Source of the DNA: an uncultured Candidatus Saccharibacteria bacterium | Lineage (GTDB): Bacteria; Patescibacteriota; Saccharimonadia; Saccharimonadales; AWTP1-31 | Assembly (NCBI GenBank): GCA_964643545.1 | Contig: CAZXTE010000002.1 | Location: 18,587 to 82,586 of the forward strand | Direction of reading: 5' to 3' | DNA length: 64,000 bases | Notes under the pieces: generated by a model | Database searches by the model: none | What the model was told of the DNA's origin: nothing | What the model saw: the letters and a program-made list of their open reading frames with translations, nothing else | Translations under genes and position numbers: made by a program | Shown here: in pieces, positions 6,285 through 53,426 of the stretch | Position numbering within the stretch: position 1 is the stretch's first letter | Layout: each line of letters opens with the position of its first letter

Positions 6285-6435
6285 ACGAACGCGTCGCACA
6301 ATGCGAGAAATAGTGTCGTAACTATTAACTAGCCGTATAATACTAGCCGAGTAGTGCTTGCTGATTTTTGTCGTGTTTTTTTCGTCCCATCTGTGGTAGG
6401 CTTATGGTTATAGAGGACAGAGGCAAAAAATAGAA

Positions 6436-7200
6436 ATGGGAACGACGATAGCGGTGCTAAACCAGAAAGGTGGCGTGGGGAAGACGACCACTGCTATTAA
6501 TTTGGGTGCTTACCTTGCAAAACGGAATAAGCAAGTATTGTTAGTCGACCTTGACCCGCAAGGTAATGCAACGAGCGGCTTAGGCATTGATAAGCAAAAG
6601 CTTGAGACGACGATGTATGATGTACTGTTTGGTAATGTCGCCGTCGAGCAGGCCAGCAAAGATACGGCCATACCTGGGCTACGAATAGCAGCTACAAACC
6701 AGCAGCTTGCTGCTGCAGAGATTGATCTCGCAGCTGAAGATAAGCGGGAGTTTAAACTAAAAACAGCCCTTGGCCCCCTTGTGTATGACTATATTTTGAT
6801 TGACTGTCCACCCTCGCTCGGCCTACTGACAATAAATGCGTTAACCGCTGCAGACAGAGTCCTTATTCCGGTGCAGGCAGAGTATTATGCGCTCGAGGGC
6901 CTGAGCCAGTTGCTTAGCGTTATCCAACGGGTACGAGAGAGTCTTAACCAACAGCTCGAACTGCTTGGGGTGGTTGTTACGATGTACGACGGCAGAACCT
7001 CGTTAAGCGAACAAGTTTTAGACGAGGTACGAAAACATTTTGGCACCAAACTCATGAATACTGTTGTGCCACGAAATATACGATTAGCAGAGGCGCCAAG
7101 CTACGGAAAGTCAATCATGGAGCATGATAAGTGGTCCAAAGGCGCCAGAAGTTACAAGAATCTAGCAAAGGAGGTGATGGATCGTGTCAGCGCGAAATAA
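6436..7200 (+). CDS. parA: Chromosome partitioning ATPase ParA/Soj
   Basis: Deviant Walker A NQKGGVGKTTTAINL. The sequence is ParA-like throughout. Confidence 0.9.
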   Translation: MGTTIAVLNQKGGVGKTTTAINLGAYLAKRNKQVLLVDLDPQGNATSGLGIDKQKLETTMYDVLFGNVAVEQASKDTAIPGLRIAATNQQLAAAEIDLAAEDKREFKLKTALGPLVYDYILIDCPPSLGLLTINALTAADRVLIPVQAEYYALEGLSQLLSVIQRVRESLNQQLELLGVVVTMYDGRTSLSEQVLDEVRKHFGTKLMNTVVPRNIRLAEAPSYGKSIMEHDKWSKGARSYKNLAKEVMDRVSAK

Positions 7201-13167: not shown

Positions 13168-16100
13168 ATGACAACCGTTATAGATGAAGCAGCAAGTCAC
13201 CACGGAGAAGCTCAGAAACAGAGTATTTCGCCGGACGATGCAGCAGAAATAGGTCAAGCTGCGCTTACCGTTCTAAATAAACTTGGCCAGCCCGAAATTA
13301 CTCCTGAGGTTGAAAGCTTTGTTGCAGATGTCGATAGTGGCGAAGCTAGTAGATCAGACTACCGCCTCGAAGATAGATTGCGTGCTCGATCCGGATTTGC
13401 CAAAGACGAGCAGGGTAATTCAGTACGACCTGACGGTAGAAATAATCTTAAAGAATCCCGTACAGTAACACCAGAACAACGGGAGTTAGTGAAAGTGGCT
13501 GCGGCAGAACGGAGTGCCACTGCAGAAAAAGCGCGGACGGCAAGCGTTAAGCTTAAAAGCCTAGAAGCTACACGCAGCTTCTTCGATGACATTGTTTCAG
13601 GCGAAGCTAGTAGATCAGACTACCGCCTCGAAGATAGATTGCGTGCTCGATCCGGATTTGCCAAAGACGAGCAGGGTAATTCAGTACGACCTGACGGTAG
13701 AAATAATCTTAAAGAATCTCGTACAGTAACACCAGAACAACGGGATGTTTTACAAGAATTTGCTGAACGGCGTGCTAGGGTGGTTGGTGCTGCGCAAGAA
13801 ACAGGCAGCGAAGTAAGGGGTATAGTTGATACCGCCAGCTTCTTCGATGACATTGTTTCAGGCGAAGCTAGTAGATCAGACTACCGCCTCGAAGATAGAT
13901 TGCGTGCTCGATCCGGATTTGCCAAAGACGAGCAGGGTAATTCAGTACGACCTGACGGTAGAAATAATCTTAAAGAATCTCGTACAGTAACACCAGAACA
14001 ACGGGAGTTAGTAGCCACTACTGTATCCAGTATAAGAGAATTAAAAGCAGATCTGCCTCAAGATCTAAAAACACAGCTTGGTGCCGGTTTAGACGGTTCA
14101 AAACTTAAGGAGTTAGAAGAACAGGTTATAAAGGAACGTGGTCAGGCGCAGGTCCCAGCAGACGTAGAGCGGTGCGATGCAGAGCTCGAAACACTGGCGA
14201 AACTTGTTGAGTTGAGTGATCAGATAAGGTTAGTACAACAGTTCGCAGCTGCCGTGCAACAAGGCCCAGACCAGGCTCGGGGCGTACTTGGTGCGGCAGA
14301 AGTATCCAGCACAGAAGACTCAAAGCTTGTCGGAGGCATTCTTACCCGCTCCGTTGTTGCGGCAAGGCTTAAGTTGGCAACAGAAAGTGTGCTTAGCGGG
14401 CAGGGTTCTCCCGAGGAGGCGCTGAATCAGCTTCAAATTATTGCTGAAAGCCCATTTTTTGCCGAGCAAATTTTAGCGGTTGCCGCTTATGCAAAACAAC
14501 GACAAATTATTGAAGAGGTAACATCGGTTGTGTCGGGTGCCACACTCGACTCTCTCGACTATGAAACACGCATGAAAGCACTGATGGACTTGCCAGAACG
14601 ACCAACCATCGAGGGCTTCGACTACTTTAAAGAGAAACGACGGCTTGTTGGTGAGTGCCGTGAAATTTTAGTTGAAGCAAGAACAGCAGAATTGCGCCGG
14701 TCTTTTGGTGACAAAGCGGTTGGTGCAGATGCCCTGATTGAGCAGATCATGGCGCTACCTAGCACCGAACCAGAAGATATTAAACTGCAAGAAGAACTAC
14801 TAGAGGCATTGGCTGTGTATTTGTTCGCGCGCCGTAAAGATCGGCCAGCCGATTTTGGTCGAGTATTCGACGAGCTCACGGAGCGCGTGAATAAACAGCT
14901 CATGCCAGAACTGCCGAAGAGCCTTGAGTTAGGCCGGAATTTGGGCGCGGCAAAATCCTTAGCACGGAAATTTAAGACTATTATTGCTCCAATTTTTCAG
15001 GCTGCGCGTGGCGATGAGCGCACGAAAGGCGTAGAGAAGTATATAACTGGCCGCGAGGGTTCCGGTGTGGGTAGAGAGTCGTACACGCTCGAAGTCGAAC
15101 GGTTGGCTGCGCAACGAGAACTAACCGATCTGGAAAGAGAATATCTAGAGTCTGTTGAAGCATTGAGTATATTCAATCCTCATCTTGTGGCCATTGCTCG
15201 TGAGTGTCCAGAAGTTGCCGAAGTCGTGCTAAAGGACTATTTTGAACGACTATCATCTCAAACAACAGAAACCATAGAAGATGGTAGCTACGTTCCTTTG
15301 CTATTTATTGGTTTGGGGCCAGAAGGCGTTACGGCACTCGGTGAATTACTTCGCATCAATCCAGCACTTGCCTCAACGTTACTCGCGGTTGATCAGGGGG
15401 CAATGCCGGGCGGCCCATTCGCTGTTCCAGAGGGTCCCGCTTGGCTACTAAACAGTGCCTCTGCCCGCGGTAATCCTGAGCCCATGCTTCCAGATTCACC
15501 ACTAACGACGGAAGCTGCAACGGGTGTACCCGAGGAGCGCACCGTACGCGCACTGTCTGGTCCACTCGGCTTTTATCCTGGAGAACGGCCAAAAGGTAGC
15601 GACACGCGGCCAGGAAGCATCAATACTACCGTAAACTACTTGCCAACCCCCGATGATATTTCCGATGAACAATTTGCGCTCAATGACGATCTGGCGCTCA
15701 TCGTTCAGTTGCAGGCCGCCATGCTTCTTGATAGGGCGGTGATGCGAACTAGGGTGGTGTCGGTTGAACCAAACCGTGATCCATCTGCGCAAGGAGATAA
15801 ACTTGTTACTCTGATGATGTTTGGTGTGGATGGCACAGAGCAAGAGGTAAAAATCAGAACTGATGCTGTTATCAACGCAAGCGGTCTTGGCGAACCGAGT
15901 TACGGGTTCCAGGCAACAGAAAGGTTTGCAGAGCTAGTTGATGCATCGAGGGAGCGCCCTGCAAATCAATTTCCGCTTGTCAGTACCACGCTGGAGGCTT
16001 TTCAGGCGTTAGCCGGCAAGGAGGGGGAGGTTAGAATCTTGGGTGACACTATTGTTATCTCTGGCTCAGGAAACTCCACGGCGACACTTGTAGAGTATAT

Positions 16101-17172
16101 TGGTGGCATTGTCGGTAATTCCGACAATCCAACAATACGAAACGTCAGAAAAATATATGTCGTTGCTGAGGGTGACTTGAGTAGACGGTCTCGCTATAAA
16201 GCAATCGCTGAGCTTCGTTCTAGGGGTGGCAGAGGGAACCTCGTGGAGTTTATTTCTAGTCGGGTTGGGGATGCGGCTTTGGATCATGAAACAGGGCGTG
16301 TTATTTTGTATGATCAACAAGGCAATCCAATCAAAGATTCCGACGGAGAAGTCGTTGAGGCGTCGTCGTTTATTGCGGGAACAGGTTTTATCCCAACGAC
16401 CGATCGGGTGTTCAGCGCATTCTTATCTCCGACTAAAAGGATTCGGGAGGGTGGTGGCGTTAAGTCAGTCGTATTGCCCACAAACCCGGACATTGCGGTA
16501 GCAGACGTGCTAGAAGCAGATCCAACGGTATTATTTGTTGGTACTGCATCACGACCCCAATTTCAGGGCGATAAACTAGATCAGCTTCCTACAGATGCCC
16601 GACGAGCCCTCGTAGATAATGGTGCGGGGAATGCAGTAGCTATCGGTTTTCGTGCACCCGACACGCGGGCTGCAATTCGTCTCTTTCTGGATGCTAACCC
16701 ACAAATTGATGCGGATAGCTCTGTTCAAGAGTCGGCCCCAGAGCCTATCGAAGTCGTTAGCTTGAGATCTCCTAATGGAGCACCTGCCCCCATTAGTATT
16801 GAAGCAGAGCTACCACCAGTCGGCGAGTTGCCGGCTGTACGCCGAGACCTATCTACGGATTCAACTATTCTGACGCCACTGTTCCTGGGATCTTTTGGCC
16901 GTTTGCGGCTAGCTGGCGGCGAAACAGCCGAGGTCGAATTTGACGTCCAGGAGCGAGATGGGAAGCTGAGTGTGGCATTCCAGGGTGAGCCTGGGTCATC
17001 CGTGTCATCGGAGCTGCTTGGAAAGGTTGCCGGAGCGGTACTGGATAGGTTCTTTGTAGCATATTGGCTTAAGGCAAGGAGTACTCGCCGCGAGCGGGAC
17101 GGATTGCGTGTATCAGTGGCTTTTCGTAACGGACGCCTTGATCTCAAAGAGACATACGTTGAGCCGATCTAA
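13168..17172 (+). CDS. Large hypothetical protein (1334 aa): three N-terminal 87-aa repeats, a helical middle, and a C-terminal region with two dinucleotide-binding-like motifs
   Basis: Uninterrupted 4-kb ORF. No signal peptide or TM helix is visible. Motifs: GLGPEG (15310-15327), GSGNS (16063-16077), AGTGF (16375-16389). Confidence 0.7.
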   Translation: MTTVIDEAASHHGEAQKQSISPDDAAEIGQAALTVLNKLGQPEITPEVESFVADVDSGEASRSDYRLEDRLRARSGFAKDEQGNSVRPDGRNNLKESRTVTPEQRELVKVAAAERSATAEKARTASVKLKSLEATRSFFDDIVSGEASRSDYRLEDRLRARSGFAKDEQGNSVRPDGRNNLKESRTVTPEQRDVLQEFAERRARVVGAAQETGSEVRGIVDTASFFDDIVSGEASRSDYRLEDRLRARSGFAKDEQGNSVRPDGRNNLKESRTVTPEQRELVATTVSSIRELKADLPQDLKTQLGAGLDGSKLKELEEQVIKERGQAQVPADVERCDAELETLAKLVELSDQIRLVQQFAAAVQQGPDQARGVLGAAEVSSTEDSKLVGGILTRSVVAARLKLATESVLSGQGSPEEALNQLQIIAESPFFAEQILAVAAYAKQRQIIEEVTSVVSGATLDSLDYETRMKALMDLPERPTIEGFDYFKEKRRLVGECREILVEARTAELRRSFGDKAVGADALIEQIMALPSTEPEDIKLQEELLEALAVYLFARRKDRPADFGRVFDELTERVNKQLMPELPKSLELGRNLGAAKSLARKFKTIIAPIFQAARGDERTKGVEKYITGREGSGVGRESYTLEVERLAAQRELTDLEREYLESVEALSIFNPHLVAIARECPEVAEVVLKDYFERLSSQTTETIEDGSYVPLLFIGLGPEGVTALGELLRINPALASTLLAVDQGAMPGGPFAVPEGPAWLLNSASARGNPEPMLPDSPLTTEAATGVPEERTVRALSGPLGFYPGERPKGSDTRPGSINTTVNYLPTPDDISDEQFALNDDLALIVQLQAAMLLDRAVMRTRVVSVEPNRDPSAQGDKLVTLMMFGVDGTEQEVKIRTDAVINASGLGEPSYGFQATERFAELVDASRERPANQFPLVSTTLEAFQALAGKEGEVRILGDTIVISGSGNSTATLVEYIGGIVGNSDNPTIRNVRKIYVVAEGDLSRRSRYKAIAELRSRGGRGNLVEFISSRVGDAALDHETGRVILYDQQGNPIKDSDGEVVEASSFIAGTGFIPTTDRVFSAFLSPTKRIREGGGVKSVVLPTNPDIAVADVLEADPTVLFVGTASRPQFQGDKLDQLPTDARRALVDNGAGNAVAIGFRAPDTRAAIRLFLDANPQIDADSSVQESAPEPIEVVSLRSPNGAPAPISIEAELPPVGELPAVRRDLSTDSTILTPLFLGSFGRLRLAGGETAEVEFDVQERDGKLSVAFQGEPGSSVSSELLGKVAGAVLDRFFVAYWLKARSTRRERDGLRVSVAFRNGRLDLKETYVEPI
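13339..14012 (+). repeat. Three tandem in-frame repeats, period 261 bp, with a near-identical core of about 150 bp
   Basis: The core GGCGAAGCTAGTAGATCAGACTACCGCCTCGAAGATAG...CCAGAACAACGGGA starts at 13339, 13600 and 13861. There is one mismatch (C versus T in AAGAATC[C/T]CGT). Copies 2 and 3 also share the prefix AGCTTCTTCGATGACATTGTTTCA. Confidence 0.95.
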
Positions 17173-19249: not shown

Positions 19250-19945
19250 ATGGCCCAACAGGGCTCACTTCCTTCGCATGTAGGCTTTATTCTGGACGGC
19301 AATCGGCGCTGGGCGCGCTCAAAGGGCCTTCCTAGTGTCGAAGGGCACAAGGCGGGCTACGAGAACCTAAAGACGATTGCGCTTGAAGCATTTCGTACAG
19401 ACATACCGTATGTCTCGGCCTACGTTTTTTCAACTGAAAACTGGAAGCGGAGTAAAACAGAAGTAAGCTACCTTATGAGGCTGCTGTTGTGGGTTGCCAA
19501 GCACGAGGTCAGGGAGCTCCACAAAGAGAATATACAAGTCGTATTTGCAGGCCGCCGAGATAAGCTCAGCGCCAAAACAGTAACCGCAATGGAACAGGCT
19601 GAAACAACCACAAAAAACAATACAGGTGGCACGCTTATGCTTTGTTTAGATTATGGCGGCAAGCAGGAAATAGTAGATTCGGTTAATGACATCTTGCGTA
19701 AAAGCCCAAACGTGGGCGAGGTAACAGAACAGGATATTGAACAACATTTGTACTCACCAAATTTTCCACCACTGGATCTGTTAATTCGCACATCAGGGGA
19801 GCATAGAATTAGTAATTTTATGCTGTGGCGGGCGGCATATGCAGAGCTTTTATTTGTAGACAAGCATTGGCCGGATTTTACGAGCTCAGATTTACGGGTG
19901 GCGCTTGGGGAGTATCAGCAGCGTAGTCGGCGGTTTGGTGTATAG
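19250..19945 (+). CDS. uppS: Undecaprenyl diphosphate synthase (cis-prenyltransferase)
   Basis: HVGFILDGNRRWA ... IRTSGEHRISNFMLWRAAYAEL. Confidence 0.9.
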   Translation: MAQQGSLPSHVGFILDGNRRWARSKGLPSVEGHKAGYENLKTIALEAFRTDIPYVSAYVFSTENWKRSKTEVSYLMRLLLWVAKHEVRELHKENIQVVFAGRRDKLSAKTVTAMEQAETTTKNNTGGTLMLCLDYGGKQEIVDSVNDILRKSPNVGEVTEQDIEQHLYSPNFPPLDLLIRTSGEHRISNFMLWRAAYAELLFVDKHWPDFTSSDLRVALGEYQQRSRRFGV

Positions 19946-24764: not shown

Positions 24765-26300
24765 ATGCAATGGCTCAACCAATTAGTTGATGAGATTACT
24801 CTTCGATTTCCTGAGGGCGATATTTTGATTGAGTCCGGTGCCTCGCCATCAGGTACGTATCACTTTGGTCACTTACGCGAAATTATCACCTCTGACGCAA
24901 TTATGCTCGAGCTCAAAAGCCGGGGACGCCAGGCACGTCACATTCAGTTTGTCGACGATCTCGACGGGCTTCGTAAAATACCGGTTAATATTCCAGCAGA
25001 TTTTGAACAGTACCTTGGTATGCCATTATGCGATATTCCAGCACCCGATGGGAGCAAGCGTAGCTTCGCAGATTATTTTGTCGACGATTTTATTGATGTT
25101 GCACAAGAGCTTGGTATAGAAATGGGCGTTGAGCGTAGTCATAAAAAATATCGCAGCGGTTTCTTTGCGCCGGCCATAGAGAGAGTATTGGCCAGTGTGC
25201 CAGCTGCGCGACAGACAATCGAATCTGTTGCAGGCCGCCAACTTGATGAGCACTGGTCGCCAATTCAAATTATGGAGTCTGGGCGATTAAAGAATCGTCG
25301 GTTCATTTCCATCGATGAAAATGCAAAAGAAGTTGTGTATGAATCACAAAACGGGGATGAACAGAGAGCAAGTTATGCATCTGGGCTTGTCAAACTAGAC
25401 TGGCGCTTAGATTGGCCAGCCCGGTGGTGGTTACTCAAGGTGCAGGTTGAACCTTTTGGTCGCGATCACGCCACAAAAGGCGGCTCATACGATACGGGGT
25501 TGGGCTTGATGGACAAAGTGTTCGATGCACCGGCACCAATACCAGTACCGTACGACTTTATTAATCGTGCTGGCGATACAAAGAAAATGAGTGCGAGTAA
25601 GGGGACCGGCATTGAAGCCAAAGAAGTGGTTCAGGTTCTGCCTGCAGAGCTTGTGCGGTACTTTGTTCTGGCTTATCCACCAAGCAAAAGACTGTATTTT
25701 GATCAAAGCGTGGGCGTCATGCGACTATTCGATGAGTTTGCTGCGTTATTGGCAAAACCCAACAGAACAGCACAGGAAGAGCAGCTGTTGAGGCTCTGCC
25801 GGGGACCGTTGGGGGATCGGATAGTTGTTAGTCAAATCCCATTTTCGCACGTTGTTGCAAGCTACCAGTCGGCGTTACGCAACCCTGAGAGGACGCTAGA
25901 TATCCTTAGTCGAACTGAGTATGGCGACAAGATCGAAGCGAATAAAGATGTACTAATGCATGAACTCACATTTATCGGTAAGTGGCTCGATAAATGGGCA
26001 CCAGATGAAGTTAAATTTGATCTGCTGGAAGATCTATCAAAGATAACGTTGACCGCGCAGCAGAAAGACTTTCTGTGCAAACTTGGTGAGTGTGTTGCAA
26101 AAGCTCCTGAAAATGCCGACGGCGCGTGGTTCCATCAAGCAATTTATGAATTAAAAGACTCGAGCGATTTAAGTCCCAAGGACTTATTCAGTACCCTCTA
26201 CCAAACGCTTATTGGTAAAGACTCAGGCCCACGTGCTGGCTGGTTCCTTAGCATTCTGCCTCGAGAATGGCTTATTAACAGACTTGCACTCAAGGCGTAG
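24765..26300 (+). CDS. lysK: Lysyl-tRNA synthetase, class I
   Basis: SGASPSGTYHFGHLREI (HIGH-like) and KMSASKGTG (KMSKS), about 510 aa, typical of class I LysRS. Confidence 0.85.
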   Translation: MQWLNQLVDEITLRFPEGDILIESGASPSGTYHFGHLREIITSDAIMLELKSRGRQARHIQFVDDLDGLRKIPVNIPADFEQYLGMPLCDIPAPDGSKRSFADYFVDDFIDVAQELGIEMGVERSHKKYRSGFFAPAIERVLASVPAARQTIESVAGRQLDEHWSPIQIMESGRLKNRRFISIDENAKEVVYESQNGDEQRASYASGLVKLDWRLDWPARWWLLKVQVEPFGRDHATKGGSYDTGLGLMDKVFDAPAPIPVPYDFINRAGDTKKMSASKGTGIEAKEVVQVLPAELVRYFVLAYPPSKRLYFDQSVGVMRLFDEFAALLAKPNRTAQEEQLLRLCRGPLGDRIVVSQIPFSHVVASYQSALRNPERTLDILSRTEYGDKIEANKDVLMHELTFIGKWLDKWAPDEVKFDLLEDLSKITLTAQQKDFLCKLGECVAKAPENADGAWFHQAIYELKDSSDLSPKDLFSTLYQTLIGKDSGPRAGWFLSILPREWLINRLALKA

Positions 26301-27054: not shown

Positions 27055-28428
27055 ATGTATATTTCAGACATTGTTCGGCGCAGCGCGCGCAGCTTGCGAC
27101 AGGCAAAAGCCAGAACATTATTAACAGCTGCTGCTATTGGTGTGGGAACATTTGCACTGACGCTTACGCTTGCAGCAAGTAACGGCGCACAACAGTTTGT
27201 GAGTCAGGTGATTGCAGATAACTTTGATCCAGCAGAGCTTATTGTAGCGAATGACAAAGCGGTTTTCGGCTCCTCCGACAACACAAAACCGCGAGAATAT
27301 GACCCAAGCTTTGGGTCGGTGAGCAATAATAGTGGCGCAGAAACACAGATTAAGCGTTTAACAGATGATGATATAGCTAAGATTAAGGCTATGAAGGGCG
27401 TTGATTTGGTGCGAAATGGCGTCACGGTTAGCTTGCAGTACATAACTCGCCCCGGTCAAAAACAATACGCTGGTACTGTCCAGGCATTCAGCCCGGCCCA
27501 GAAACCAGACCTAGCTGCGGGAAGTGTTAAGAACCCGTTTATAAAGAATGGCCTCGTATTGCCAGAAGCCTACCTGAGTTCATTGGGGTTCAAGGACGCG
27601 AACGACGCTATTGGAAAAAAGGTGACATTTGCAGTTCGTAAGTCATTTGACCAAGCGGTCTATCAGCAGGCTGTTCGCCAGGGTACGCTTAATGACCCTG
27701 CAGCAGTTGCCAGGCTGAGCGAGAACAATAATGTGCAAGAAGAGTTTACAGTGATGGCTGTGCTCAATAAACCTACTGTGGCACAACCAGGCACCGAATT
27801 GTACATGTTCGTTAGTGCAGACGATGCGCTACGTTTGAATGACTATGCCACCAGCGGAACGGCAGATTATCGTAAGTACACATTTGTGTATGTGCGTATA
27901 AAAAACGGGGACGACAAAGCCACATTAACATCCGCACAAGACGCACTAAAGGAAATGGGTTACGTCGCACAAAGCGTGGAAGACACCCAGAAATTTTTAA
28001 CCCAAATTATTGGTGTTCTGCAGGGGATTGTTACAGCTTTTGGTGCAATTGCCATTATTGCCTCAGTTTTTGGAGTTGTAAACACTATGTACATTAGTGT
28101 TCTGCAGAGGACTCGGGAGATAGGGCTGATGAAGGCACTGGGTATGCGCAAAAAGGACATAGGACGACTATTTCGCTTTGAAGCAGCCTGGATAGGTTTC
28201 TTGGGCGGTGTCATTGGCGCTGCCACTGCATTTTTAGTGGGGCTAGCGCTTAACCCATGGATTACAAAAAAACTGAAGCTTGGCGATGGCAACGAGCTAC
28301 TTATATACAAGCCCTCACAAATTGTTCTACTGATCTTTGCACTGATGGTTGTTGCGACAGTTGCTGGGCTGCTACCGGCTCGTAAAGCGGCGAAGCTTGA
28401 TCCAATAGAAGCACTGCGAACAGAATAG
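27055..28428 (+). CDS. ABC transporter permease, FtsX/MacB-type with a large extracytoplasmic domain
   Basis: N-terminal TM helix, a periplasmic-like domain of about 280 aa, and a C-terminal FtsX-like 3-TM bundle ending KLDPIEALR. Confidence 0.8.
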   Translation: MYISDIVRRSARSLRQAKARTLLTAAAIGVGTFALTLTLAASNGAQQFVSQVIADNFDPAELIVANDKAVFGSSDNTKPREYDPSFGSVSNNSGAETQIKRLTDDDIAKIKAMKGVDLVRNGVTVSLQYITRPGQKQYAGTVQAFSPAQKPDLAAGSVKNPFIKNGLVLPEAYLSSLGFKDANDAIGKKVTFAVRKSFDQAVYQQAVRQGTLNDPAAVARLSENNNVQEEFTVMAVLNKPTVAQPGTELYMFVSADDALRLNDYATSGTADYRKYTFVYVRIKNGDDKATLTSAQDALKEMGYVAQSVEDTQKFLTQIIGVLQGIVTAFGAIAIIASVFGVVNTMYISVLQRTREIGLMKALGMRKKDIGRLFRFEAAWIGFLGGVIGAATAFLVGLALNPWITKKLKLGDGNELLIYKPSQIVLLIFALMVVATVAGLLPARKAAKLDPIEALRTE

Positions 28429-28433
28429 CCATC

Positions 28434-28964
28434 ATGGCGGCTGTAACTGAATCAATTATTTTGGGTGGCGGATGCTTTTGGTGTCTCGAAGCCAGCTTTG
28501 AACTAATAAAGGGGGTCGTTAAAGTCACGCCAGGATATGCTGGTGGTAGCACGCCGGCGCCAACATACGAGAGTGTTGCAAGCAAAAGAACAGGGCATGC
28601 AGAAGTGGTCAAGGTTGAGTTCGATCCAAGGAGTATCTCGCTGACAGACATTTTGGACATTTTTTGGGCAATTCACGACCCAACGACACCGAACCGGCAG
28701 GGCAATGACGTTGGGTCGGAGTATCGGTCAATTATTATCTACAGTCCACCACAAAAGGATAGGGTACGTATATCGATTCAGCGTGCACAAAAACTATGGT
28801 CCAAGCCTATTGTCACGGAGTTGCAAACAGGCAGCATGTTTTATGAGGCTGAACCAGAACATCATAATTTTTTTCAGAAGAACCCCGAAATAGCGTATTG
28901 TCAGGTTATTATTAATCCAAAACTACAAAAACTACGCCAGAAGTTTTCTGCACACTTAAGATAA
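28434..28964 (+). CDS. msrA: Peptide methionine (S)-sulfoxide reductase
   Basis: GGGCFWCLEA catalytic motif with GYAGG and HAEVV segments. Confidence 0.9.
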   Translation: MAAVTESIILGGGCFWCLEASFELIKGVVKVTPGYAGGSTPAPTYESVASKRTGHAEVVKVEFDPRSISLTDILDIFWAIHDPTTPNRQGNDVGSEYRSIIIYSPPQKDRVRISIQRAQKLWSKPIVTELQTGSMFYEAEPEHHNFFQKNPEIAYCQVIINPKLQKLRQKFSAHLR

Positions 28965-28990
28965 GACTCCAAGAGCGAGGCTACTCAAAA

Positions 28991-29671
28991 CTAGCGGATC
29001 TGTTTCGCCTCAACAACAAAGCGCTTTGAAGTGCTACCCAAGGGATAACAGGTATACATGGTTAATTTATAGGGCACATTTGGATCATTGTTTCTGATAT
29101 CAACTTGAGTGGGTAAGACTGTTCTGGTGTTGAATATCTCATACTCGTACACGACATCATCCCACCGAATGTATATTCGCTTGCCGATTTTTAGTTCAGG
29201 CAGATTATAAAAGTATCCGCCATTACTTGCCGTATAGAGGAATCGGTGACCCGCAAGTACAACGTTGCCGGGTTTGGTTGGATCGACTTGTCGATTTTCC
29301 CGCCAAACGCCCTGGTTCTTACCAATAACGTAAACATTGTTACCTTCGATGATCTGGGCATTCACACCAATGTCAGGCAAGATCAACCGATTGCCGGGTG
29401 TTGGTTTTTGTTCTTGCGGTGCTGCGGGCTTATCGCCTCCCGTCTGACGCGATTGCTGCGCAGCTTGGGCGTATGGCGTTGCATCGATTTTTGGTTGTCG
29501 AAAAAGAAAACTGAGATGGGGCAGATAGGGGAATACGAGTACTAGAAAACTGCAAACGCTAGTTATACTTAGTATGACGAGTAGCGCTTTGGCACGCTTA
29601 CTTCGGGGTCTGGGTAGCCAGTGGCGATTCCAGATGGCTTTTCGCTGTTTGATGGTGATTTTTGTGGGCAT
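28991..29671 (-). CDS. Sortase family transpeptidase
   Basis: N-terminal TM anchor, VLAGHR (catalytic His) and LTMYTCYPLGS (TLxTC Cys motif). Confidence 0.8.
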   Translation of the reverse strand: MPTKITIKQRKAIWNRHWLPRPRSKRAKALLVILSITSVCSFLVLVFPYLPHLSFLFRQPKIDATPYAQAAQQSRQTGGDKPAAPQEQKPTPGNRLILPDIGVNAQIIEGNNVYVIGKNQGVWRENRQVDPTKPGNVVLAGHRFLYTASNGGYFYNLPELKIGKRIYIRWDDVVYEYEIFNTRTVLPTQVDIRNNDPNVPYKLTMYTCYPLGSTSKRFVVEAKQIR

Positions 29672-29732
29672 TAGCAGTTTGTATTATAGCATTCGACTGT
29701 TATTGGCCCCCAACCCATGGTATATTTCTTGC
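29672..29732. promoter_or_regulatory. 61-bp divergent promoter region (sortase / heliorhodopsin)
   Basis: Plus strand: TGgTATATT (-10 at 29721-29726), 6 nt before ATG 29733. Minus strand: TGCTATAAT, 11 nt before the sortase ATG. Confidence 0.55.
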
Positions 29733-30554
29733 ATGGATAAAAAACGGACAAAAAAAACAAAGAGCAAGACGGCAAACAAGATTAAAACGGGTAGCCTCAT
29801 AAAATGGAACATCGTTATGGCGGCTTTGCATGCCTTGCAAGGGATAGTGGTCTTGGTGTTAAGCAAAGGTGGTGGCTGGCCTATCTCTACGAACTACTTA
29901 ACACTTGATAAAGTCGCAGAGCAAGCAGCCGATAGGCCCGTTTTGGTGCAGGCGTCACAGCACCTGTTTGATGTGAATTTGGCATATCTCGTGGCAGCAT
30001 TCTTCTTTATGTCTGCTCTTGCGCACGGTGTTATTGCCACGGTCTACAGAAAGCGCTACATTGCGGATCTAGGGAAGGGCATTAATCGTGCTCGTTGGGT
30101 TGAGTATAGTTTTAGTGCCAGCACCATGATGGTCGCCATAGGGTTGCTTAGTGGCATTTATGATCTATCAACACTTATGATGATTTTTGCGCTGGTTCAT
30201 ATTATGAATCTAATGGGTCTGGTCATGGAGATACATAACCAGGGGGCCAAGAAAGTTAATTGGTTATCTTATAGTGTTGGTACCTTTGCGGGTATTGTTC
30301 CCTGGATTGTCTTTGGACTGTATGTATGGGGAGCGACCGTCTATGGCGCAGAAGGTGTCCCGGGCTTTGTTTACTGGATTTACCTAAGCATCTTCTTATT
30401 CTTTAACTGTTTCGCGGTTAACATGTACCTCCAATACAAGAAGAGGGGAAAGTGGGCGGATTATCTGTACGGTGAGCGCGTCTACATGATCTTGAGTCTT
30501 GTTGCTAAGTCGGCACTTGCGTGGCAAGTCTTTGCTGGCACACTTCGTCCATAA
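29733..30554 (+). CDS. Heliorhodopsin
   Basis: Seven TM helices. RWVEYSFSAS, GIVPWIVFGLY, VPGFVYWIYLSIFLFFNCFAVNMYLQYKKRGKW and YMILSLVAKSALAWQVFAGTL closely match my recollection of heliorhodopsin 48C12. These cover the counterion Glu in WVEYS and the Schiff-base Lys (codon 30507-30509). Confidence 0.85.
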   Translation: MDKKRTKKTKSKTANKIKTGSLIKWNIVMAALHALQGIVVLVLSKGGGWPISTNYLTLDKVAEQAADRPVLVQASQHLFDVNLAYLVAAFFFMSALAHGVIATVYRKRYIADLGKGINRARWVEYSFSASTMMVAIGLLSGIYDLSTLMMIFALVHIMNLMGLVMEIHNQGAKKVNWLSYSVGTFAGIVPWIVFGLYVWGATVYGAEGVPGFVYWIYLSIFLFFNCFAVNMYLQYKKRGKWADYLYGERVYMILSLVAKSALAWQVFAGTLRP

Positions 30555-30555
30555 C

Positions 30556-31242
30556 ATGAAAATACATAGATTCTATGTATCTAGCGTCCCCGATTTGTCG
30601 GAAATTGTCTTGCACGATCCGTTGCTTATACATCAGTGGAGTCATGTACTTCGTTTTCGGTCCGGGCAACGCCTAGCTTTGTTTGATGGCACGACCACGG
30701 ATGGACTATATGAGTTGATCGATCTACATAAAGACGCTGCAAAACTGAGGAAGATTGCTGCTAATACGCGCCAGGTACCTGCAAGAGAAGTCTATCTATT
30801 CTGGTCAGTCCTAAAAAAAGACAAAAATGACTGGGTCCTGCAGAAATGCACGGAACTCGGAGTGAGTTACTTCGTGCCGTTGGTGACTGACCGTTCAGAG
30901 AAAGCAAACATCAACATGACTCGCGCCCAGAAAATTATAACTGAAGCATCCGAACAATCTGGTAGGAGCGATATCCCGACCATTATAGAACCTATTTCGC
31001 TTAAAGATGCAGTCGACGACTATCATAATCGAGTCAAACTATTTATCTGTGAACAAGGGGAGGATGGAACCGGGGGCCCTCTCGGGCAGGAAGCAGTTGG
31101 CATTCTGGTGGGCCCAGAAGGTGGTTGGTCGGAAGTAGAAAAAGCCTATATGAAGAGCGCGGCATTACCGCAGATGAACCTGGGCGCATTTACATTACGT
31201 GCAGAGACCGCGTGCATTATTGGTGCTGCAAAGCTACAATAG
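30556..31242 (+). CDS. rsmE: 16S rRNA (uracil1498-N3)-methyltransferase RsmE
   Basis: MKIHRFYV N-terminus and a SPOUT C-terminal region (GPEGGWS..E, LGAFTLRAETA). ATG lies 2 nt after the heliorhodopsin stop. Confidence 0.8.
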   Translation: MKIHRFYVSSVPDLSEIVLHDPLLIHQWSHVLRFRSGQRLALFDGTTTDGLYELIDLHKDAAKLRKIAANTRQVPAREVYLFWSVLKKDKNDWVLQKCTELGVSYFVPLVTDRSEKANINMTRAQKIITEASEQSGRSDIPTIIEPISLKDAVDDYHNRVKLFICEQGEDGTGGPLGQEAVGILVGPEGGWSEVEKAYMKSAALPQMNLGAFTLRAETACIIGAAKLQ

Positions 31243-31248
31243 CTGAAC

Positions 31249-32055
31249 ATGGCAAACAATTACTGGAGGGAACGAAGTCAACCGTATATACCAGGTCAGG
31301 TAGCTCCGTTCAAGGTGAGTCGATCGAAGATAGAGCTATTTATGCAGTGCCCACGGTGTTTTTGGTTGGACGTTCGGCTCAAAATAAAAAGGCCTAATGG
31401 CCCGCCGTTTCAGATTAATAAAGCTATCGACGAGCTACTTAAGAAAGAGTTTGATAGCTACCGAGAAAAGGGCCAGCCGCACCCGTTGATGACAGATAAT
31501 CAGATAAAGGCCATCCCGATGCAGCATAAGGATCTGGACACATGGCGACATAATTTTACAGGTGTTTCCACGCTGCATGTACCTACTAACTTGCATATAT
31601 TTGGGGCTGTTGACGATATTTGGATAGATGACGCAGGCCAACTGATCGTAGTTGACTATAAGGCAACAGCAAAATCAAAAGAAGTTAGCTTAGACGCCGA
31701 GTGGCAGATAAGCTACAAGCGTCAGATGGAGGTGTACCAGTGGCTTCTTAGGCAGAACGGTTTCCCGGTCAGCAATGTGGGGTACTTTGTTTACACTAAT
31801 GGGCGTCTAGATCTAGATGGTTTTTATGACAAAGTGGAGTTTACGACCAAAGTTATTGAGTATATGGGTGATGATGCCTGGGTGGACCCGACAATCAAAA
31901 AAATGAAGAAATGTATGGAAGCGGGTGGCATGCCCGCTGTAGGAACGGCTGCTATGGGTGGGCCCTGCGAGTTCTGCGAGTACGCAAAGGCGAGGACGAT
32001 GCTGACCGTAAAAGCAATGCAATCAAAAGCAAAAACTGGCAAAGCTACGGTATAA
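31249..32055 (+). CDS. PD-(D/E)XK nuclease, Cas4/RecB-like with a Cys cluster
   Basis: CPRC near the N-terminus, GAVDD ... VVDYK (D..ExK-type), QMEVYQWLL (QxxxY), and C-terminal C..CEFCEY. This arrangement is seen in Fe-S Cas4/AddB-type nucleases. Confidence 0.65.
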   Translation: MANNYWRERSQPYIPGQVAPFKVSRSKIELFMQCPRCFWLDVRLKIKRPNGPPFQINKAIDELLKKEFDSYREKGQPHPLMTDNQIKAIPMQHKDLDTWRHNFTGVSTLHVPTNLHIFGAVDDIWIDDAGQLIVVDYKATAKSKEVSLDAEWQISYKRQMEVYQWLLRQNGFPVSNVGYFVYTNGRLDLDGFYDKVEFTTKVIEYMGDDAWVDPTIKKMKKCMEAGGMPAVGTAAMGGPCEFCEYAKARTMLTVKAMQSKAKTGKATV

Positions 32056-43069: not shown

Positions 43070-44674
43070 GTGACGAAACCTGTTAAGTTTGTGTTTGTTA
43101 CTGGTGGCGTTCTTTCCGGACTCGGAAAGGGTATCACCGCCGCCTCTATCGGGAACATCCTTAAGGCTCGCGGCCTCAAAGTAAACGCCCAAAAACTAGA
43201 CCCATACCTAAACGTCGATGCCGGAACCCTAAATCCTGCAGAGCATGGTGAGTGCTTTGTCACCAAAGATGGTGCCGAAACTGATCTAGACCTCGGCCAT
43301 TACGAACGTTTCTTAGATGTTGAAATGACGACCAAAAGCTCAGTCATGAGTGGTAAAATTATCAGCAAACTTATTGCCGACGAGCGCGCCGGAAAGTTTC
43401 TTGGTAAAACTGTGCAAGTCGTGCCACACCTTACCAACGCCATCCAAGACGCGATCATCGCAGCCAGCGAGGGTTTTGATGTGCAAATTGTAGAGATCGG
43501 TGGCACAGTTGGCGATTACGAGAGCCCGGCATTTTTTGAAGCAATTCGTGAACTTGGAGCAAAAGTAGGCAAGCAAAATTGTGCCTATGTACACGTCGTC
43601 TACATGCCATATTTATCAACAAGCCAAGAAATAAAGACAAAACCGGCGCAGAATGCAGTACGGGATTTGCGCAGTCTTGGCATTGTGCCAGATGTACTGG
43701 TGGCGCGTAGTGAAGTGGCCGATATATCTGATCCACGAGAAAAACTCAGCGCCTTCTGCGGTGTCGCAAAAGAGGGCATTGCTATACTGCCAAATGCTAA
43801 GTCGGTTTACGAAGTCCCATTAACATTAGAAGCCCAGGGTATTGGTGCCTATATCACGAAACAGCTTGGTTTGCCGAGCAAAAAACCACATTTAAAAGAG
43901 TGGGAACAGATGGTTTCTGCAGTAAAACAATCGCCAAAACATACAAAGAGAATAGGTGTTGTAGCAAAATATCTAGACAATCAAGACACCTATATGTCGG
44001 TCTTTGAGGCATTAAAAGCAGCAGCCTGGAGTCAGGAAACTAAGTTGGACATTGTCTGGGTAGATGCTGAAGCAATCGAGAAAGCGGGCAATGCAAACAG
44101 CGCTTTGAAAAACCTTGATGGCATTGTTGTGCCGGGTGGCTTTGGCTCGCGTGGTGTCGAGGGCAAGATCATGGCTGCACAGCACGCACTTAAGAGTAGC
44201 TTGCCGTACCTTGGCTTGTGTTTAGGGTTGCAGGTTGGCGTGATTGCTGCCGCAAGAAACGCCGGTCTTGCTAATGCAAATACAGCAGAAATTGATCCGA
44301 ATGGAACTGAGTTAGTCATAGATACCATGGCTGATCAAAAGGGCAAAGAAAACACGGGTGGTACCATGCGTTTGGGTGATTATCCGTGTATTCTAGACAA
44401 GAATAGTCTGGCTGCACAACTGTACAAATCTTCAAAAATTACCGAGCGACATCGTCACCGATACGAATGCAGTAACGCTTATGTAGACAAGTATGAGACA
44501 TGGGGTATTGTACCCGTCGGCAAATCGCCAGACGGTCAGTTAGTAGAGATGATAGAAGGTAAAGAGCACCCATTTTTTGTTGCGAGTCAATTCCACCCAG
44601 AGTTCCGATCTCGTCCAAATAGACCACACCCAATGTTCTCTGGTTTTGTGACGAGTTTGCTTGCCAAAAAATGA
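43070..44674 (+). CDS. pyrG: CTP synthase
   Basis: KFVFVTGGVLSGLGKGITAAS and a GATase domain (GLCLGLQ, FHPEF). GTG start. Promoter TTGCGT, 17 nt, TAGTAT upstream. Confidence 0.95.
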   Translation: MTKPVKFVFVTGGVLSGLGKGITAASIGNILKARGLKVNAQKLDPYLNVDAGTLNPAEHGECFVTKDGAETDLDLGHYERFLDVEMTTKSSVMSGKIISKLIADERAGKFLGKTVQVVPHLTNAIQDAIIAASEGFDVQIVEIGGTVGDYESPAFFEAIRELGAKVGKQNCAYVHVVYMPYLSTSQEIKTKPAQNAVRDLRSLGIVPDVLVARSEVADISDPREKLSAFCGVAKEGIAILPNAKSVYEVPLTLEAQGIGAYITKQLGLPSKKPHLKEWEQMVSAVKQSPKHTKRIGVVAKYLDNQDTYMSVFEALKAAAWSQETKLDIVWVDAEAIEKAGNANSALKNLDGIVVPGGFGSRGVEGKIMAAQHALKSSLPYLGLCLGLQVGVIAAARNAGLANANTAEIDPNGTELVIDTMADQKGKENTGGTMRLGDYPCILDKNSLAAQLYKSSKITERHRHRYECSNAYVDKYETWGIVPVGKSPDGQLVEMIEGKEHPFFVASQFHPEFRSRPNRPHPMFSGFVTSLLAKK

Positions 44675-44696
44675 TAATTGTCGTAGCATAAGTGTT

Positions 44697-45104
44697 ATGG
44701 ATGAACCAAAACAAACCAGTGACGCAGGCAAAGTTCAGAAGAAGATTCTACTTGTAGAAGACGATGATGCGCTCGCCAGTGTATATCAAACACGATTGCA
44801 AGCAGAAGGCTTCGATGTTCGTCGTGTCCCCAATGGCGAAGACGCGCTCGCAGCCGCATTAGAATATAAGCCAGACCTAACATTACTCGATGTCATGATG
44901 CCCAAGGTTAGTGGTTTCGATGTACTAGATATTCTTCGTAACACACCCGAAACAGCTAAGATCAAGGTTATTATGCTAACTGCACTCAGCCAAGAGAGCG
45001 ACAAAGATCGTGCCAAGAACCTCGGTGTAGACGACTATCTTGTGAAATCCCAGGTTGTGATCGCAGATGTAGTAGATCGCATCAAGCAACACCTCGGCGT
45101 TTAA
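44697..45104 (+). CDS. Single-domain response regulator (CheY-like receiver)
   Basis: LLVEDDD, DLTLLDVMMP (phospho-Asp), MLTA and YLVKS form a complete receiver signature. No output domain and no adjacent kinase. Confidence 0.85.
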   Translation: MDEPKQTSDAGKVQKKILLVEDDDALASVYQTRLQAEGFDVRRVPNGEDALAAALEYKPDLTLLDVMMPKVSGFDVLDILRNTPETAKIKVIMLTALSQESDKDRAKNLGVDDYLVKSQVVIADVVDRIKQHLGV

Positions 45105-45721: not shown

Positions 45722-47332
45722 ATGTCGGCAGATATCCCAGAATCAAATCAATCACCACAACACGAAACAATTGGTTTTCAAGATGGTTTGAGGCTGCAGC
45801 TGTTGGCCGAACGACGTGACCGAGTTTTGGCTCAGAAACTAGACTTTGCTGCTCGGTCAACAACCGAGGGTGTTGTTCCCGATATGACTACAATCCTCGA
45901 ACTGTCAGAGAGCTACACCGGCGTCGACTGCGGTTACCAGCCAAGCGCTTTTTCTCGAGTAGAGCGCAAGATGCTAGATGAGGCGGCCCACAAAGCAAAC
46001 ATTCCCGTTCATGCAGGGGACAGTCTCGCCGTGGGCACTACCGAGCCAGTGATTGTGTGGCAAGACTTCGAAAATGGTCGCCAGACAATCCGATATCGTG
46101 ATGGATCGGGCACATTTAGAAACGCTTTGGCAGAAGTCGTAGACGAGGTTGCAAGACCTTTCAAGCGGATTGGGAATCGAGTTCAGCTTGACCAAGCGGT
46201 ACTATCAGAGGAAGCATATGATCTCTCGGATGAGAAGGTGGATACCGTCATGCTATTTATGCTGAGTAACCCAAAAACAAAGATGCTCGCTAAAGATCGT
46301 GCAGTATTTACAGAGTCGCTGTATCGGCTACCAGTTCATTTGCCGGAAGACCGAAACGATCCCAAAGTCTCAGCAGCCGGCGTATATTTTGACGAGGACG
46401 GTAATTTAGTTAAGATTCTGCAAGAAGTGGGTAGAACAACGGGTGTTTATCATGGAATGTACTTTGATCCGGGAACTCATGTAGATCCGACCGAAACCAG
46501 CTTTAAGCTTGGCGTTGAGATTGGTGTGGATCGAGCTCTACTAGAACCCGATAGTACTAATTTGTTCCTTGTTGACCCATTTCTTGAGCAGCCAACGGGT
46601 AAGGCGCTTACTCGGAGTATTGAATCCCTGCAACTAACACCCTCGTCAAGACTAGTTAATATTCTAGAGGCGCAAGACGGGTCCTATGGTTACGATGACC
46701 TCTACGGTAATAGCTATTCAGAACTAACCCGCGAAGTCGCAAAGTTCATCAACGATCCGAGTAGGCCAGTTAGTGAGCTGTTTCAAGATGAGGATGCTGC
46801 ATCGAAACTCAAAACAATGGATCTTGCAACAATCGAAGACCTTGCAACCCGAGTATTCTTTGAATTGCTTCAGAAGGCGCTAAAAAGAGAAGAGGGTCAA
46901 AATTTTGAATCGGAGGTTCCTGTATTTGAAGGCAAGATACACATGCGCCAGAGCGCGTGCAGAGATGCGGAATACTATTTTTGTGCAGACGTAGACGAGG
47001 GAGGCTATGATGTTGTTGATGTTCAGGGTAAACCAATGCTACACAAGTACTCAGGCGGTAAAACAGCGATTAACCTCGAGCCTCTCATCTATAAGGGTGT
47101 AGAGATCCCTGCAGGTGGATTGTTCCAACGACATCGTGACGAAGAGGGAAAGACCTCCTACGCATTTGTGCGCATGACAACCTATGCACTAGATGAGCAA
47201 TCGGCTGCATCGGCCTATACATGGCAATATGAAAAGATTAAACAAGTTAAACCTAATGGTGATATATCGCTCCAAAAACTTAAAATGCTAGTGAAAAAGC
47301 AGCCCGCTACAGCAGCTAACCAGACCGAGTAA
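45722..47332 (+). CDS. Hypothetical protein (536 aa), predicted cytoplasmic
   Basis: Long ORF with coding-like composition. Own promoter: TTGCTT 45668-45673, 17 nt, TGcTAATGT 45688-45696. No motif recognised. Confidence 0.55.
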   Translation: MSADIPESNQSPQHETIGFQDGLRLQLLAERRDRVLAQKLDFAARSTTEGVVPDMTTILELSESYTGVDCGYQPSAFSRVERKMLDEAAHKANIPVHAGDSLAVGTTEPVIVWQDFENGRQTIRYRDGSGTFRNALAEVVDEVARPFKRIGNRVQLDQAVLSEEAYDLSDEKVDTVMLFMLSNPKTKMLAKDRAVFTESLYRLPVHLPEDRNDPKVSAAGVYFDEDGNLVKILQEVGRTTGVYHGMYFDPGTHVDPTETSFKLGVEIGVDRALLEPDSTNLFLVDPFLEQPTGKALTRSIESLQLTPSSRLVNILEAQDGSYGYDDLYGNSYSELTREVAKFINDPSRPVSELFQDEDAASKLKTMDLATIEDLATRVFFELLQKALKREEGQNFESEVPVFEGKIHMRQSACRDAEYYFCADVDEGGYDVVDVQGKPMLHKYSGGKTAINLEPLIYKGVEIPAGGLFQRHRDEEGKTSYAFVRMTTYALDEQSAASAYTWQYEKIKQVKPNGDISLQKLKMLVKKQPATAANQTE

Positions 47333-52305: not shown

Positions 52306-53037
52306 ATGCGGACGAAGAAAAATGAGTACAAAAAGTATTCTAAAGACGAGGAACGTCAGTTGCTTGCGTCGCTTGCCGAACAGCTAAGAGTCCCTATTGT
52401 TCAAATGGCTCGGCTCTCCGAAGAGGATAGTAAAAAAAATCGTAAAACTATTGCGACAATATCAAGGACAGCAAACGAGCTCATAGATGCCTATCAACTT
52501 GTGCTGCAGTTGCATATGCAGGAGGGGGCACTGCACGTTGAACCAGTCTCGCTCTCTGCGCTTCTGCATAAGACAGCGCAGAAAACGCAAAGACTTGCAG
52601 AAGAGTATCGCTGTGATGTGCAGATAGACACAAGAGGGAGCTATGAGCCGGTTCTAATAAACACAGAGATCATAGAGGCTGCGTTGAGTGCTCTTAGTTC
52701 TGTCTTTATCATTGAGTCAAAAGCGTCTGGCACAGACACCGCTAGATCGAGCCGACCCATTGTTACGCTTGCGGCCCATCGTAGTCGCTGGGGATTGGTT
52801 GTGGGTGCGTATAGTAGTAATACATCAATGAACAACGCAACGTATGGGCGAGCTAAGAATCTGTATGGCAAGGCGCGACAGCCACTCAATCATATCTTTA
52901 CGTCTGCAGGGGCTGGCGTTTTTATCGCCAACGCGCTGCTTGCAATGGCTGCATGTAACCTCCATGCATCGAGATACCACAACATGACTGGCCTCGCCGT
53001 CACCTTAAAACCCGCCAGTCAACTGAGCTTAGTGTAA
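52306..53037 (+). CDS. Histidine-kinase-like protein with degenerate catalytic motifs (putative pseudokinase)
   Basis: The DHp-like segment LASLAEQLRVPI aligns to the xSHELRTPL box with Glu (52378-52380) at the His position. The X-box/linker resembles HK cores. The N and G1 boxes are not recognisable, and the G2-like box is SAGAGVFIA. Confidence 0.55.
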   Translation: MRTKKNEYKKYSKDEERQLLASLAEQLRVPIVQMARLSEEDSKKNRKTIATISRTANELIDAYQLVLQLHMQEGALHVEPVSLSALLHKTAQKTQRLAEEYRCDVQIDTRGSYEPVLINTEIIEAALSALSSVFIIESKASGTDTARSSRPIVTLAAHRSRWGLVVGAYSSNTSMNNATYGRAKNLYGKARQPLNHIFTSAGAGVFIANALLAMAACNLHASRYHNMTGLAVTLKPASQLSLV

Positions 53038-53426
53038 TGCGCATTTTGCTTGTGGAGCCCGATCAAATATTGGCGAAAGTCTATACGGCCGCCTGCCTCA
53101 AGAATAATAAGAATGCCGAGATTGTTAGTGTTAGTTCAATCGAGGACGCCATAGTAGCAGCCGACAACCAGCAACCCGATCTTATAATTTGTGAGCTACT
53201 ACTTGCTCGTCATAATGGCGTAGAGTTTTTGTACGAACTGCGCTCGTATACGGATCTCAAATCCATCCCTGTCATCATACTAAGTTGGGTCCCGGAGCAG
53301 GAGTTTTACTCGACGATTGATGCGGGTTTATTGGGTGTCCATGCGTATTTGTATAAACCCACAACAACACTTTCGCATTTAATCTCTGTGGTGCAAAAAG
53401 TCACTATCGAGGCAAAATTACGATGA
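53037..53426 (+). CDS. Receiver-domain protein with Glu at the phospho-acceptor position
   Basis: MRILLVEPD ... DLIICELLL (Glu 53193-53195 where Asp is expected) ... VIILSW ... YLYKP. TAATG coupling to the upstream gene. Confidence 0.7.
   Translation: MRILLVEPDQILAKVYTAACLKNNKNAEIVSVSSIEDAIVAADNQQPDLIICELLLARHNGVEFLYELRSYTDLKSIPVIILSWVPEQEFYSTIDAGLLGVHAYLYKPTTTLSHLISVVQKVTIEAKLR

Follow-up and report, generated by a model that had tools for sequence, protein, structure and literature searches.

Among described heliorhodopsins (HeRs), two of solved structure lie closest to the gene considered here: TaHeR, from the Thermoplasmatales archaeon SG8-52-1 (PDB 6IS6, 7CLJ, 7U55), and the founding member of the family, 48C12 (PDB 6SU3, 6UH3), which is of actinobacterial origin. 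Both are said, in the reports that go under the names of Pushkarev (2018) and Shihoya (2019), to be non-transporting. External retinal is rapidly bound by TaHeR, whose source organism has no retinal pathway of its own (cited in PMC9296517). Other HeRs regulate partner proteins, namely glutamine synthetase, photolyase and the ABC exporter OmrDE, through charged residues of the intracellular loops (ICLs), and the basic residues of the first of these loops, ICL1, are essential (PMC11109279). In one survey, 80 heliorhodopsins are counted in the Saccharimonadia, and the motif most often seen is SLVAK (Chiriac et al. 2022, PMC9166423). The present gene belongs to that lineage. It lies in a 64,000-nucleotide stretch, called the window below, of contig CAZXTE010000002.1 (assembly GCA_964643545.1, positions 18,587 to 82,586) from an uncultured Candidatus Saccharibacteria bacterium, where an earlier note, made from the letters alone, had named an open reading frame (ORF) a heliorhodopsin.

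That identification holds at the level of profile, sequence and modelled fold. The ORF matches PF18761, the Pfam Heliorhodopsin model, over the whole profile (1-242 of 242; E 3.5e-89; 298.7 bits against a cutoff of 26.7), and its protein finds TaHeR (6IS6) at E 1e-72 and 48C12 (6SU3) at E 5e-49 among the PDB sequences. Identity to TaHeR is 49% over the core of seven transmembrane helices (TMs); 48C12, at ~41%, is of the same family and fold and is the more distant of the two. An AF2 model built with an alignment of 28 homologues has a pLDDT of 85.3, seven helices and the beta-hairpin typical of HeRs in the AB loop, the first extracellular loop (strands 49-58 and 71-81). Compared by Foldseek, it gives a TM-score of 0.92 (rmsd 2.0 A) with TaHeR 6is6 and of 0.87-0.90 with 48C12; type-1 rhodopsins reach at most 0.76, at ~13% identity. 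By its sequence, the ORF is a genuine, intact and canonical heliorhodopsin of a Candidatus Saccharibacteria bacterium.

At 55-75% identity, the close homologues are essentially all from Saccharibacteria/Saccharimonadales metagenome-assembled genomes (MAGs), followed by Thermoplasmata archaea at ~51% and then Chloroflexi at 46-48%. The same locus is present, with 95-99% protein identity, in the MAG of Candidatus Saccharibacteria bacterium isolate CTOTU2456 (L001; numbers of the type L001 or L003 denote HeR-site loci, and those of the type P0121 denote proteins). The earlier description of the host as a reduced-genome epibiont is consistent with a Candidatus Saccharibacteria MAG, L001 of the same group being 99% identical. 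An in-frame ATG at 29574 offers an alternative start, for a protein of 326 aa, and among public gene calls some run to 321 aa. With this extension the HeR and sortase genes would overlap by ~98 nt, and homologues lack it, their N-termini all consisting of a short basic tail similar in length to that of the 273-aa form; ATG 29733 is therefore the better call.

The residues that define the chromophore site are all in place. The alignment pairs H33, H98, R121, W122, E124, S255 and K259 with H23, H80, R104, W105, E107, S237 and K241 of 48C12, and S255 and K259 supply the SxxxK pattern (SLVAK) in TM7. The earlier note had put the counterion Glu in RWVEYS and the Schiff-base Lys in SLVAKSALAWQ; both motifs are present, the Lys stands in TM7 at exactly the codon claimed, and the Glu falls on the counterion of 48C12. 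K259, E124, H33 and H98 are invariant among the 28 homologues, and the Lys, the Glu, both His and the retinal-pocket motifs are unchanged in 120 of the 120 top homologues in the clade of the window protein. The likeness to TaHeR is closest at the end of the protein, where TM7 and the C-terminus are identical (SLVAKSALAWQVFAGTLRP), and the Glu counterion, the His pair and the ICL3 motif are likewise the same. Unlike TaHeR, the window protein has a bacterial host, a longer and more basic N-terminal tail and two insertions, of 6 residues in the AB loop and of 5 residues in the TM5-TM6 loop, and its genomic context is unrelated.

Counted over the modelled helices, 18 Lys and Arg residues lie on the loops of the N-terminal side and 4 on the opposite side, and the protein is therefore predicted to have the inverted, N-terminus-inside topology that had been attributed to it. 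The alignment of the 28 homologues (61-73% identity) contains 75 invariant columns, the whole of ICL3 and TM7 included. ICL1 (YRKRYIADLGKGINRAR) and ICL3 (YKKRGKWADY) are among its most conserved parts, and their basic residues are kept: R106, K107 and R108 in the former, K236, K237, R238 and K240 in the latter.

Taken as a whole, the best explanation, which we hold with moderate confidence, is that the gene encodes a functional, canonical HeR serving as a slow, non-transporting photoreceptor, with retinal from an external source, a leaderless mRNA and a fixed, vertically inherited site. The predicted seven-TM protein would lie with its N-terminus in the cytoplasm and, judging from the aligned residues, K259 would bind all-trans retinal as a protonated Schiff base, with E124 as the counterion and H33 and H98 as the accompanying pair. 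Most likely it resembles those prokaryotic heliorhodopsins that have been characterised and is a photoreceptor that transports nothing and has a slow photocycle. Signalling might then consist in a change in how its strongly basic, highly conserved loops ICL1 and ICL3 touch a partner protein. Transcription would start at the gene's own extended -10 promoter and produce a leaderless mRNA that also carries rsmE.

Several considerations weigh against this account. To our knowledge, HeR function has been demonstrated experimentally for only a handful of proteins, none of them from Patescibacteria. No partner gene is specifically linked to the HeR, and the signalling step would follow by analogy only. 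At the same genomic site some relatives have HeR-family genes that are intact yet encode neither the Lys nor the Glu, so the scaffold can persist without a chromophore, which hints at a light-independent component. Finally, our own data on retinal supply cover the 64-kb window, and a retinal pathway may lie elsewhere in the genome.

For the OcHeR-OmrDE, AbHeR-glutamine synthetase and HeR-photolyase pairs, the mode of action proposed is direct contact through positive intracellular loops, and the window HeR keeps basic residues in ICL1 and ICL3 (PMC11109279). Unlike in those cases, none of the corresponding partner genes adjoins it. The nearby ABC system also differs from OmrDE in being of the MacB/FtsX type rather than a TmrAB-like heterodimer, and it is not consistently linked, a pair of this kind being found at ~15 of 80 HeR loci. 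Saccharibacteria are attractive for the question of HeR function: so small a genome restricts how many partners there can be, and cultivation and genetic manipulation are by now feasible for some members of the group (PMC10633639).

The earlier note is right, but what it found was known before. A deposited NCBI sequence matches the window protein at 100% identity, HMS50116.1, a mate in the same 90% cluster, bears the name 'heliorhodopsin HeR [Candidatus Saccharibacteria bacterium]', and both the HeRs of the lineage and retinal scavenging by Saccharibacteria have been published. The window HeR falls in the same clade as the Saccharimonadia/CPR HeRs of Chiriac et al. 2022 (PMC9166423), has the motif that is commonest there and shows no substantive difference. 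This gene adds nothing new to the HeR catalogue. No mention of the conserved genomic site or of the leaderless promoter was found in the passages of PMC9166423 that were consulted.

On the supply of retinal, Pfam scans of all ~64 window ORFs found no phytoene synthase or desaturase, lycopene cyclase, Blh/BCD, RPE65 or polyprenyl synthase, in agreement with the earlier statement that the window holds no carotenoid or retinal gene; its one isoprenoid enzyme is an undecaprenyl-diphosphate synthase. In rhodopsin-bearing Saccharibacteria, likewise, no blh has been found, their type-1 rhodopsins rapidly bind external retinal, and actinobacterial hosts have been proposed as the source (PMC9296517). 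Because no pathway is present in the window and none has been reported in rhodopsin-bearing Saccharibacteria, the HeR probably takes its retinal from outside by analogy with those rhodopsins, and the earlier suggestion of scavenging is a reasonable one that matches the published work (PMC9296517).

The control region lies in the spacer between the HeR gene and a divergent sortase gene, which measures 61 bp as had been stated and carries two back-to-back -10 elements (Table 1). No purine run resembling a Shine-Dalgarno (SD) sequence stands upstream of the HeR ATG. The earlier claim that the gene is leaderless remains a prediction, one which two independent lines of evidence now favour. Within the window, a hexamer matching TATAAT at 5 or more of its 6 positions ends 6-8 nt before the start codon in 14 of 64 genes, where ~0.5 would be expected from the hexamer frequency of the window; near the HeR, the ABC ATPase, PD-(D/E)XK and serS genes belong to this class. 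Across relatives, a TAnnnT element ends 5-9 nt (usually 6-7) before the HeR ATG at 49 of the 66 loci that could be scored, mostly from different species of Saccharibacteria. Its commonest forms are TGnTA(T/A/C)AGT and TGcTATAAT, in flanking sequence that is not conserved. Several HeR loci have GGAGG-type ribosome-binding sites instead, among them one Berkelbacteria, one Chloroflexia and one archaeal record together with some more divergent ones labelled Saccharibacteria or Saccharimonadales. The case that the HeR has its own promoter of leaderless type, read from sequence as it is, is strong. This conserved promoter would be a control point of the gene's own, open to tests of regulation by light or by the host.

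The 14-gene class amounts to about a fifth of the window genes, lacks SD sequences and often has TGn upstream of the hexamer; its starts include 19998, 26343, 31249, 32063, 37758, 38889, 49167(-), 54327, 56472, 59701 and 61023. Such a pattern suggests that leaderless mRNAs are common in the source Saccharibacterium, and a literature search found no account of leaderless transcription in Saccharibacteria. The sortase -10 is a perfect TGcTATAAT outside the 6-8 nt class, with a predicted leader of 4-5 nt. Its reverse complement recurs upstream of the HeR at other sortase-bearing loci, as 'tatagca' at L003, L004, L020 and L031 and as the variant 'tatacca' at L023 and L054. Apart from the two -10s, no conserved element was evident in the upstream sequences of related loci, inspected unaligned. 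A two-hexamer sigma-70 scan of 28300-31400 placed no site at the start of either the HeR or the sortase gene, and its total fell below that of shuffled sequence; such a scan is unsuitable here because the promoters are of the extended -10 type with no recognisable -35. On the downstream side, a single base (C 30555) separates the HeR stop codon from the rsmE ATG, just as the earlier note had it. With this gap, and with neither a -10 element nor an SD upstream of rsmE, the HeR gene probably heads a two-gene HeR-rsmE transcript in this genome.

A survey of 80 species-level HeR loci places the gene in a conserved order that reads, on the 5' side, proS - greA - lysS - [ABC ATPase + FtsX/MacB permease] - DUF427 - msrA - [sortase, divergent] - HeR and, on the 3' side, HeR - [HAD hydrolase] - [RumA-like methyltransferase] - [rsmE] - PD-(D/E)XK - serS - hpf - secA. 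The ORF directly 3' of the HeR is a HAD hydrolase at 18 loci and a RumA-like methyltransferase at 12. The specificity of these associations was examined on metagenome contigs anchored on PD-(D/E)XK with at least 3 kb upstream, giving 37 loci, of which 19 have a HeR-family gene and 18 do not; the HAD, RumA-like and rsmE genes remain in the HeR-less loci. In the housekeeping gene order conserved among Saccharibacteria, the HeR has a fixed site at which it is either present or absent. Over the same loci, mean pairwise identity is 59% for the HeR, 57% for serS and 65% for PD-(D/E)XK, and pairwise identities correlate at rho 0.27-0.30 between the HeR and its neighbours and 0.23 between one neighbour and another. 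These sequence comparisons are compatible with vertical inheritance of the HeR under strong purifying selection. The neighbourhood was considered as a clue to a partner and set aside: the neighbours that recur all belong to the housekeeping backbone of this order, so that none can be named as the partner.

Two side observations concern these loci. L005 carries two HeR-family ORFs, one directly after the other and both on one strand, of which the first is the HeR match (6001-6795). At a few HeR loci that have no divergent sortase, a Pro/Thr-rich surface protein with an LPTTG sortase signal at its end is encoded just upstream of the HeR on the opposite strand (L017:2723-3436 (-) and the cluster-22 ORFs of L027, L039 and L050).

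The same backbone site in other Saccharibacteria is occupied by very divergent PF18761 proteins, with 18-45% identity to the window HeR, all of which match the Pfam model. Six of them (P0121-P0124, P0127 and P0136) have no Schiff-base Lys, and in every one of the six the counterion Glu is gone too. The Lys is replaced by L, V, I or A: P0121 (OGL29822.1) has K->L together with E->G, and P0122-P0124 have K->V or I. A profile search with three of the Lys-less proteins brought up more of them. The cluster of P0121 comprises 10 records from several archives, of which 9 hold the intact protein of 275 aa and the tenth a 161-aa fragment. Judged by sequence, the Lys-less proteins may be retinal-free derivatives of heliorhodopsins, a class of which a literature search found no description. 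A further divergent set keeps the Lys and has F, L, Y or D in place of the counterion Glu; three of its members have Asp at Lys-4 (DxxxK, as in type-1 rhodopsins), and many carry Lys/Thr/Ala-rich N-terminal extensions of 40-80 aa. One may imagine that the HeR is ancestral at the fixed site, that several lineages independently lost the Lys and Glu yet retained an intact, conserved seven-TM protein there, and that the scaffold, the window protein included, has a retinal-independent function. We think this unlikely. Were it so, that function could be constitutive regulation of a membrane or cytoplasmic partner, for example, with light a modulator only where retinal can be scavenged. The Lys-less orthologues at the same site offer a natural comparison between light-dependent and light-independent roles and are the most interesting lead of the analysis. 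They leave the verdict on the window gene unchanged, because its own clade is uniformly canonical (120/120).

The last point bears on the idea that the HeR does most of its work independently of light and retinal, for instance as a membrane partner with a structural or regulatory role, its chromophore site being dispensable or vestigial in a retinal-auxotrophic lineage. Intact, full-length PF18761 proteins without Lys and Glu at the orthologous site in several Saccharibacteria lineages, the integrity of P0121 across its cluster and the lack of a retinal pathway in the window all speak for such a role. Nonetheless, invariance of the Lys, the Glu, both His and the pocket motifs throughout the window protein's clade argues for selection on chromophore binding, and the Lys-less forms, only 18-38% identical to the window protein, may be neofunctionalised; we regard the idea as distinctly improbable. 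Light-driven ion transport, as by the viral V2HeR3, draws on proton transport reported for a viral HeR (cited in PMC11109279 and PMC12873467). Against it stand the closest solved relatives, TaHeR at 49% identity and 48C12, both described as non-transporting, and the retention of all residues of the closed prokaryotic type, so that transport by the window protein is very improbable. The canonical photoreceptor remains the preferred reading over both.

Two other proposals take a neighbouring gene as the partner. A photo-oxidative-stress sensor tied to MsrA, in which light would raise or activate the repair of oxidised methionine, is in keeping with published proposals that link HeRs to the mitigation of oxidative stress (PMC8612252, PMC9166423), and msrA does lie upstream on the same strand within 3.6 kb at 29 of 80 loci (as the directly adjacent ORF in 10 of 79). 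That said, msrA is found upstream of PD-(D/E)XK at 13 of 18 HeR-less loci against 11 of 19 HeR-bearing ones (Fisher p = 0.50), and because it persists without the HeR, its adjacency adds nothing to the idea. The HeR is moreover predicted to have its own promoter, with no co-transcription with msrA, and in the window the divergent sortase gene comes between the two; the proposal seems to us a poor prospect. A functional pair of HeR and RsmE, by which light would control 16S rRNA methylation or ribosome maturation, could appeal to the 1-base gap, to the lack of a separate rsmE promoter or SD here and to the same adjacency at L001 (near-identical to the window) and in five other species (L009, L020, L031, L037 and L057). 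Yet these are the only 6 of the 80 loci with rsmE directly downstream; elsewhere the HAD hydrolase, the RumA-like methyltransferase or PD-(D/E)XK comes next, and rsmE is kept where the HeR is absent, all of which makes the pairing barely credible. The divergent sortase, for its part, is directly upstream at 11 of 80 loci, L001 counted. Of what the earlier note proposed to check in the neighbourhood, the adjacency of sortase, rsmE and msrA is thus real in this genome, but functional linkage finds no footing in the counts, and the three genes should not be taken as evidence of it.

Table 1. Positions of the features discussed, in window numbering unless a locus number precedes them.
Feature	Position	Strand	Basis or remark
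HeR coding sequence, 273 aa	29733..30554	+	PF18761, TaHeR 6is6 match, AF2 model; stop TAA 30552-30554
H33 codon (= H23 of 48C12)	29829..29831	+	alignment; invariant in 28 homologues
H98 codon (= H80 of 48C12), partner of H33	30024..30026	+	alignment; invariant in 28 homologues
E124 codon, predicted Schiff-base counterion in TM3, RWVEYS	30102..30104	+	aligns with E107 of 48C12 and the TaHeR counterion Glu
K259 codon, predicted retinal Schiff-base Lys in TM7, SLVAK motif	30507..30509	+	aligns with K241 of 48C12 and the equivalent TaHeR Lys
Divergent intergenic region, 61 bp, two back-to-back -10 elements	29672..29732	.	read from sequence
HeR extended -10, TGgTATATT, ends 6 nt before ATG 29733	29718..29726	+	TATATT 29721-29726, TG 29718-29719
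Sortase extended -10, TGcTATAAT, 11 nt before ATG 29671	29683..29691	-	read from sequence
msrA, peptide methionine sulfoxide reductase, upstream backbone neighbour	28434..28964	+	PF01625 E 1.1e-54
Sortase, 226 aa, N-terminal membrane anchor, AGHR and LTMYTC motifs	28991..29671	-	PF04203 E 1.1e-22
rsmE, 16S rRNA m3U1498 methyltransferase family	30556..31242	+	PF04452 E 3e-37, PUA PF20260 E 2.8e-5
PD-(D/E)XK nuclease-family gene, downstream backbone marker	31249..32055	+	PF12705 E 8.9e-14; own -10 TACAAT 8 nt before ATG
uppS, undecaprenyl-diphosphate synthase, only isoprenoid enzyme of the window	19250-19945		Pfam
Lys-less HeR-family genes	L102:7181-8005, L090:4938-5906, L117:17-769, L130:5207-6043, L134:923-1777, L086:5739-6479		
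Divergent Lys-keeping HeR-family genes	L129:1346-2230, L132:4983-5864, L157:4455-5438, L141:1826-2743, L143:4428-5366, L104:1928-2908		

The sortase combines its profile match with the catalytic His motif and a TLxTC-type Cys. HeRs are reported from hosts with a monoderm-type envelope, and the presence of a sortase gene beside the HeR in a Candidatus Saccharibacteria host would, as far as gene content goes, fit a Gram-positive-like wall; no LPXTG sortase substrate was found in the 64-kb window. The predicted function of RsmE follows from a SPOUT methyltransferase domain joined to an N-terminal PUA domain. The MacB/FtsX-type ATPase and permease pair lies 1.3-3.4 kb upstream of the HeR, outside its transcription unit. 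Histidine kinases near HeR genes have been reported for some phyla (PMC8612252), and none adjoins the HeR in the window.

Elsewhere in the window, just two stand-alone response-regulator receiver-domain genes occur, at 44661-45104 (+) and 53037-53426 (+), 14 and 22 kb downstream of the HeR, with no adjacent histidine kinase or output domain. Two ORFs, 13168-17172 (+) of 1334 aa and 45722-47332 (+) of 536 aa, have no Pfam match at E <= 0.001, and in the 1334-aa protein neither a signal peptide nor an LPXTG tail is obvious. The lysyl-tRNA synthetase at 24765-26300 (+) is a class I enzyme (PF01921), the form that bacteria have less often.

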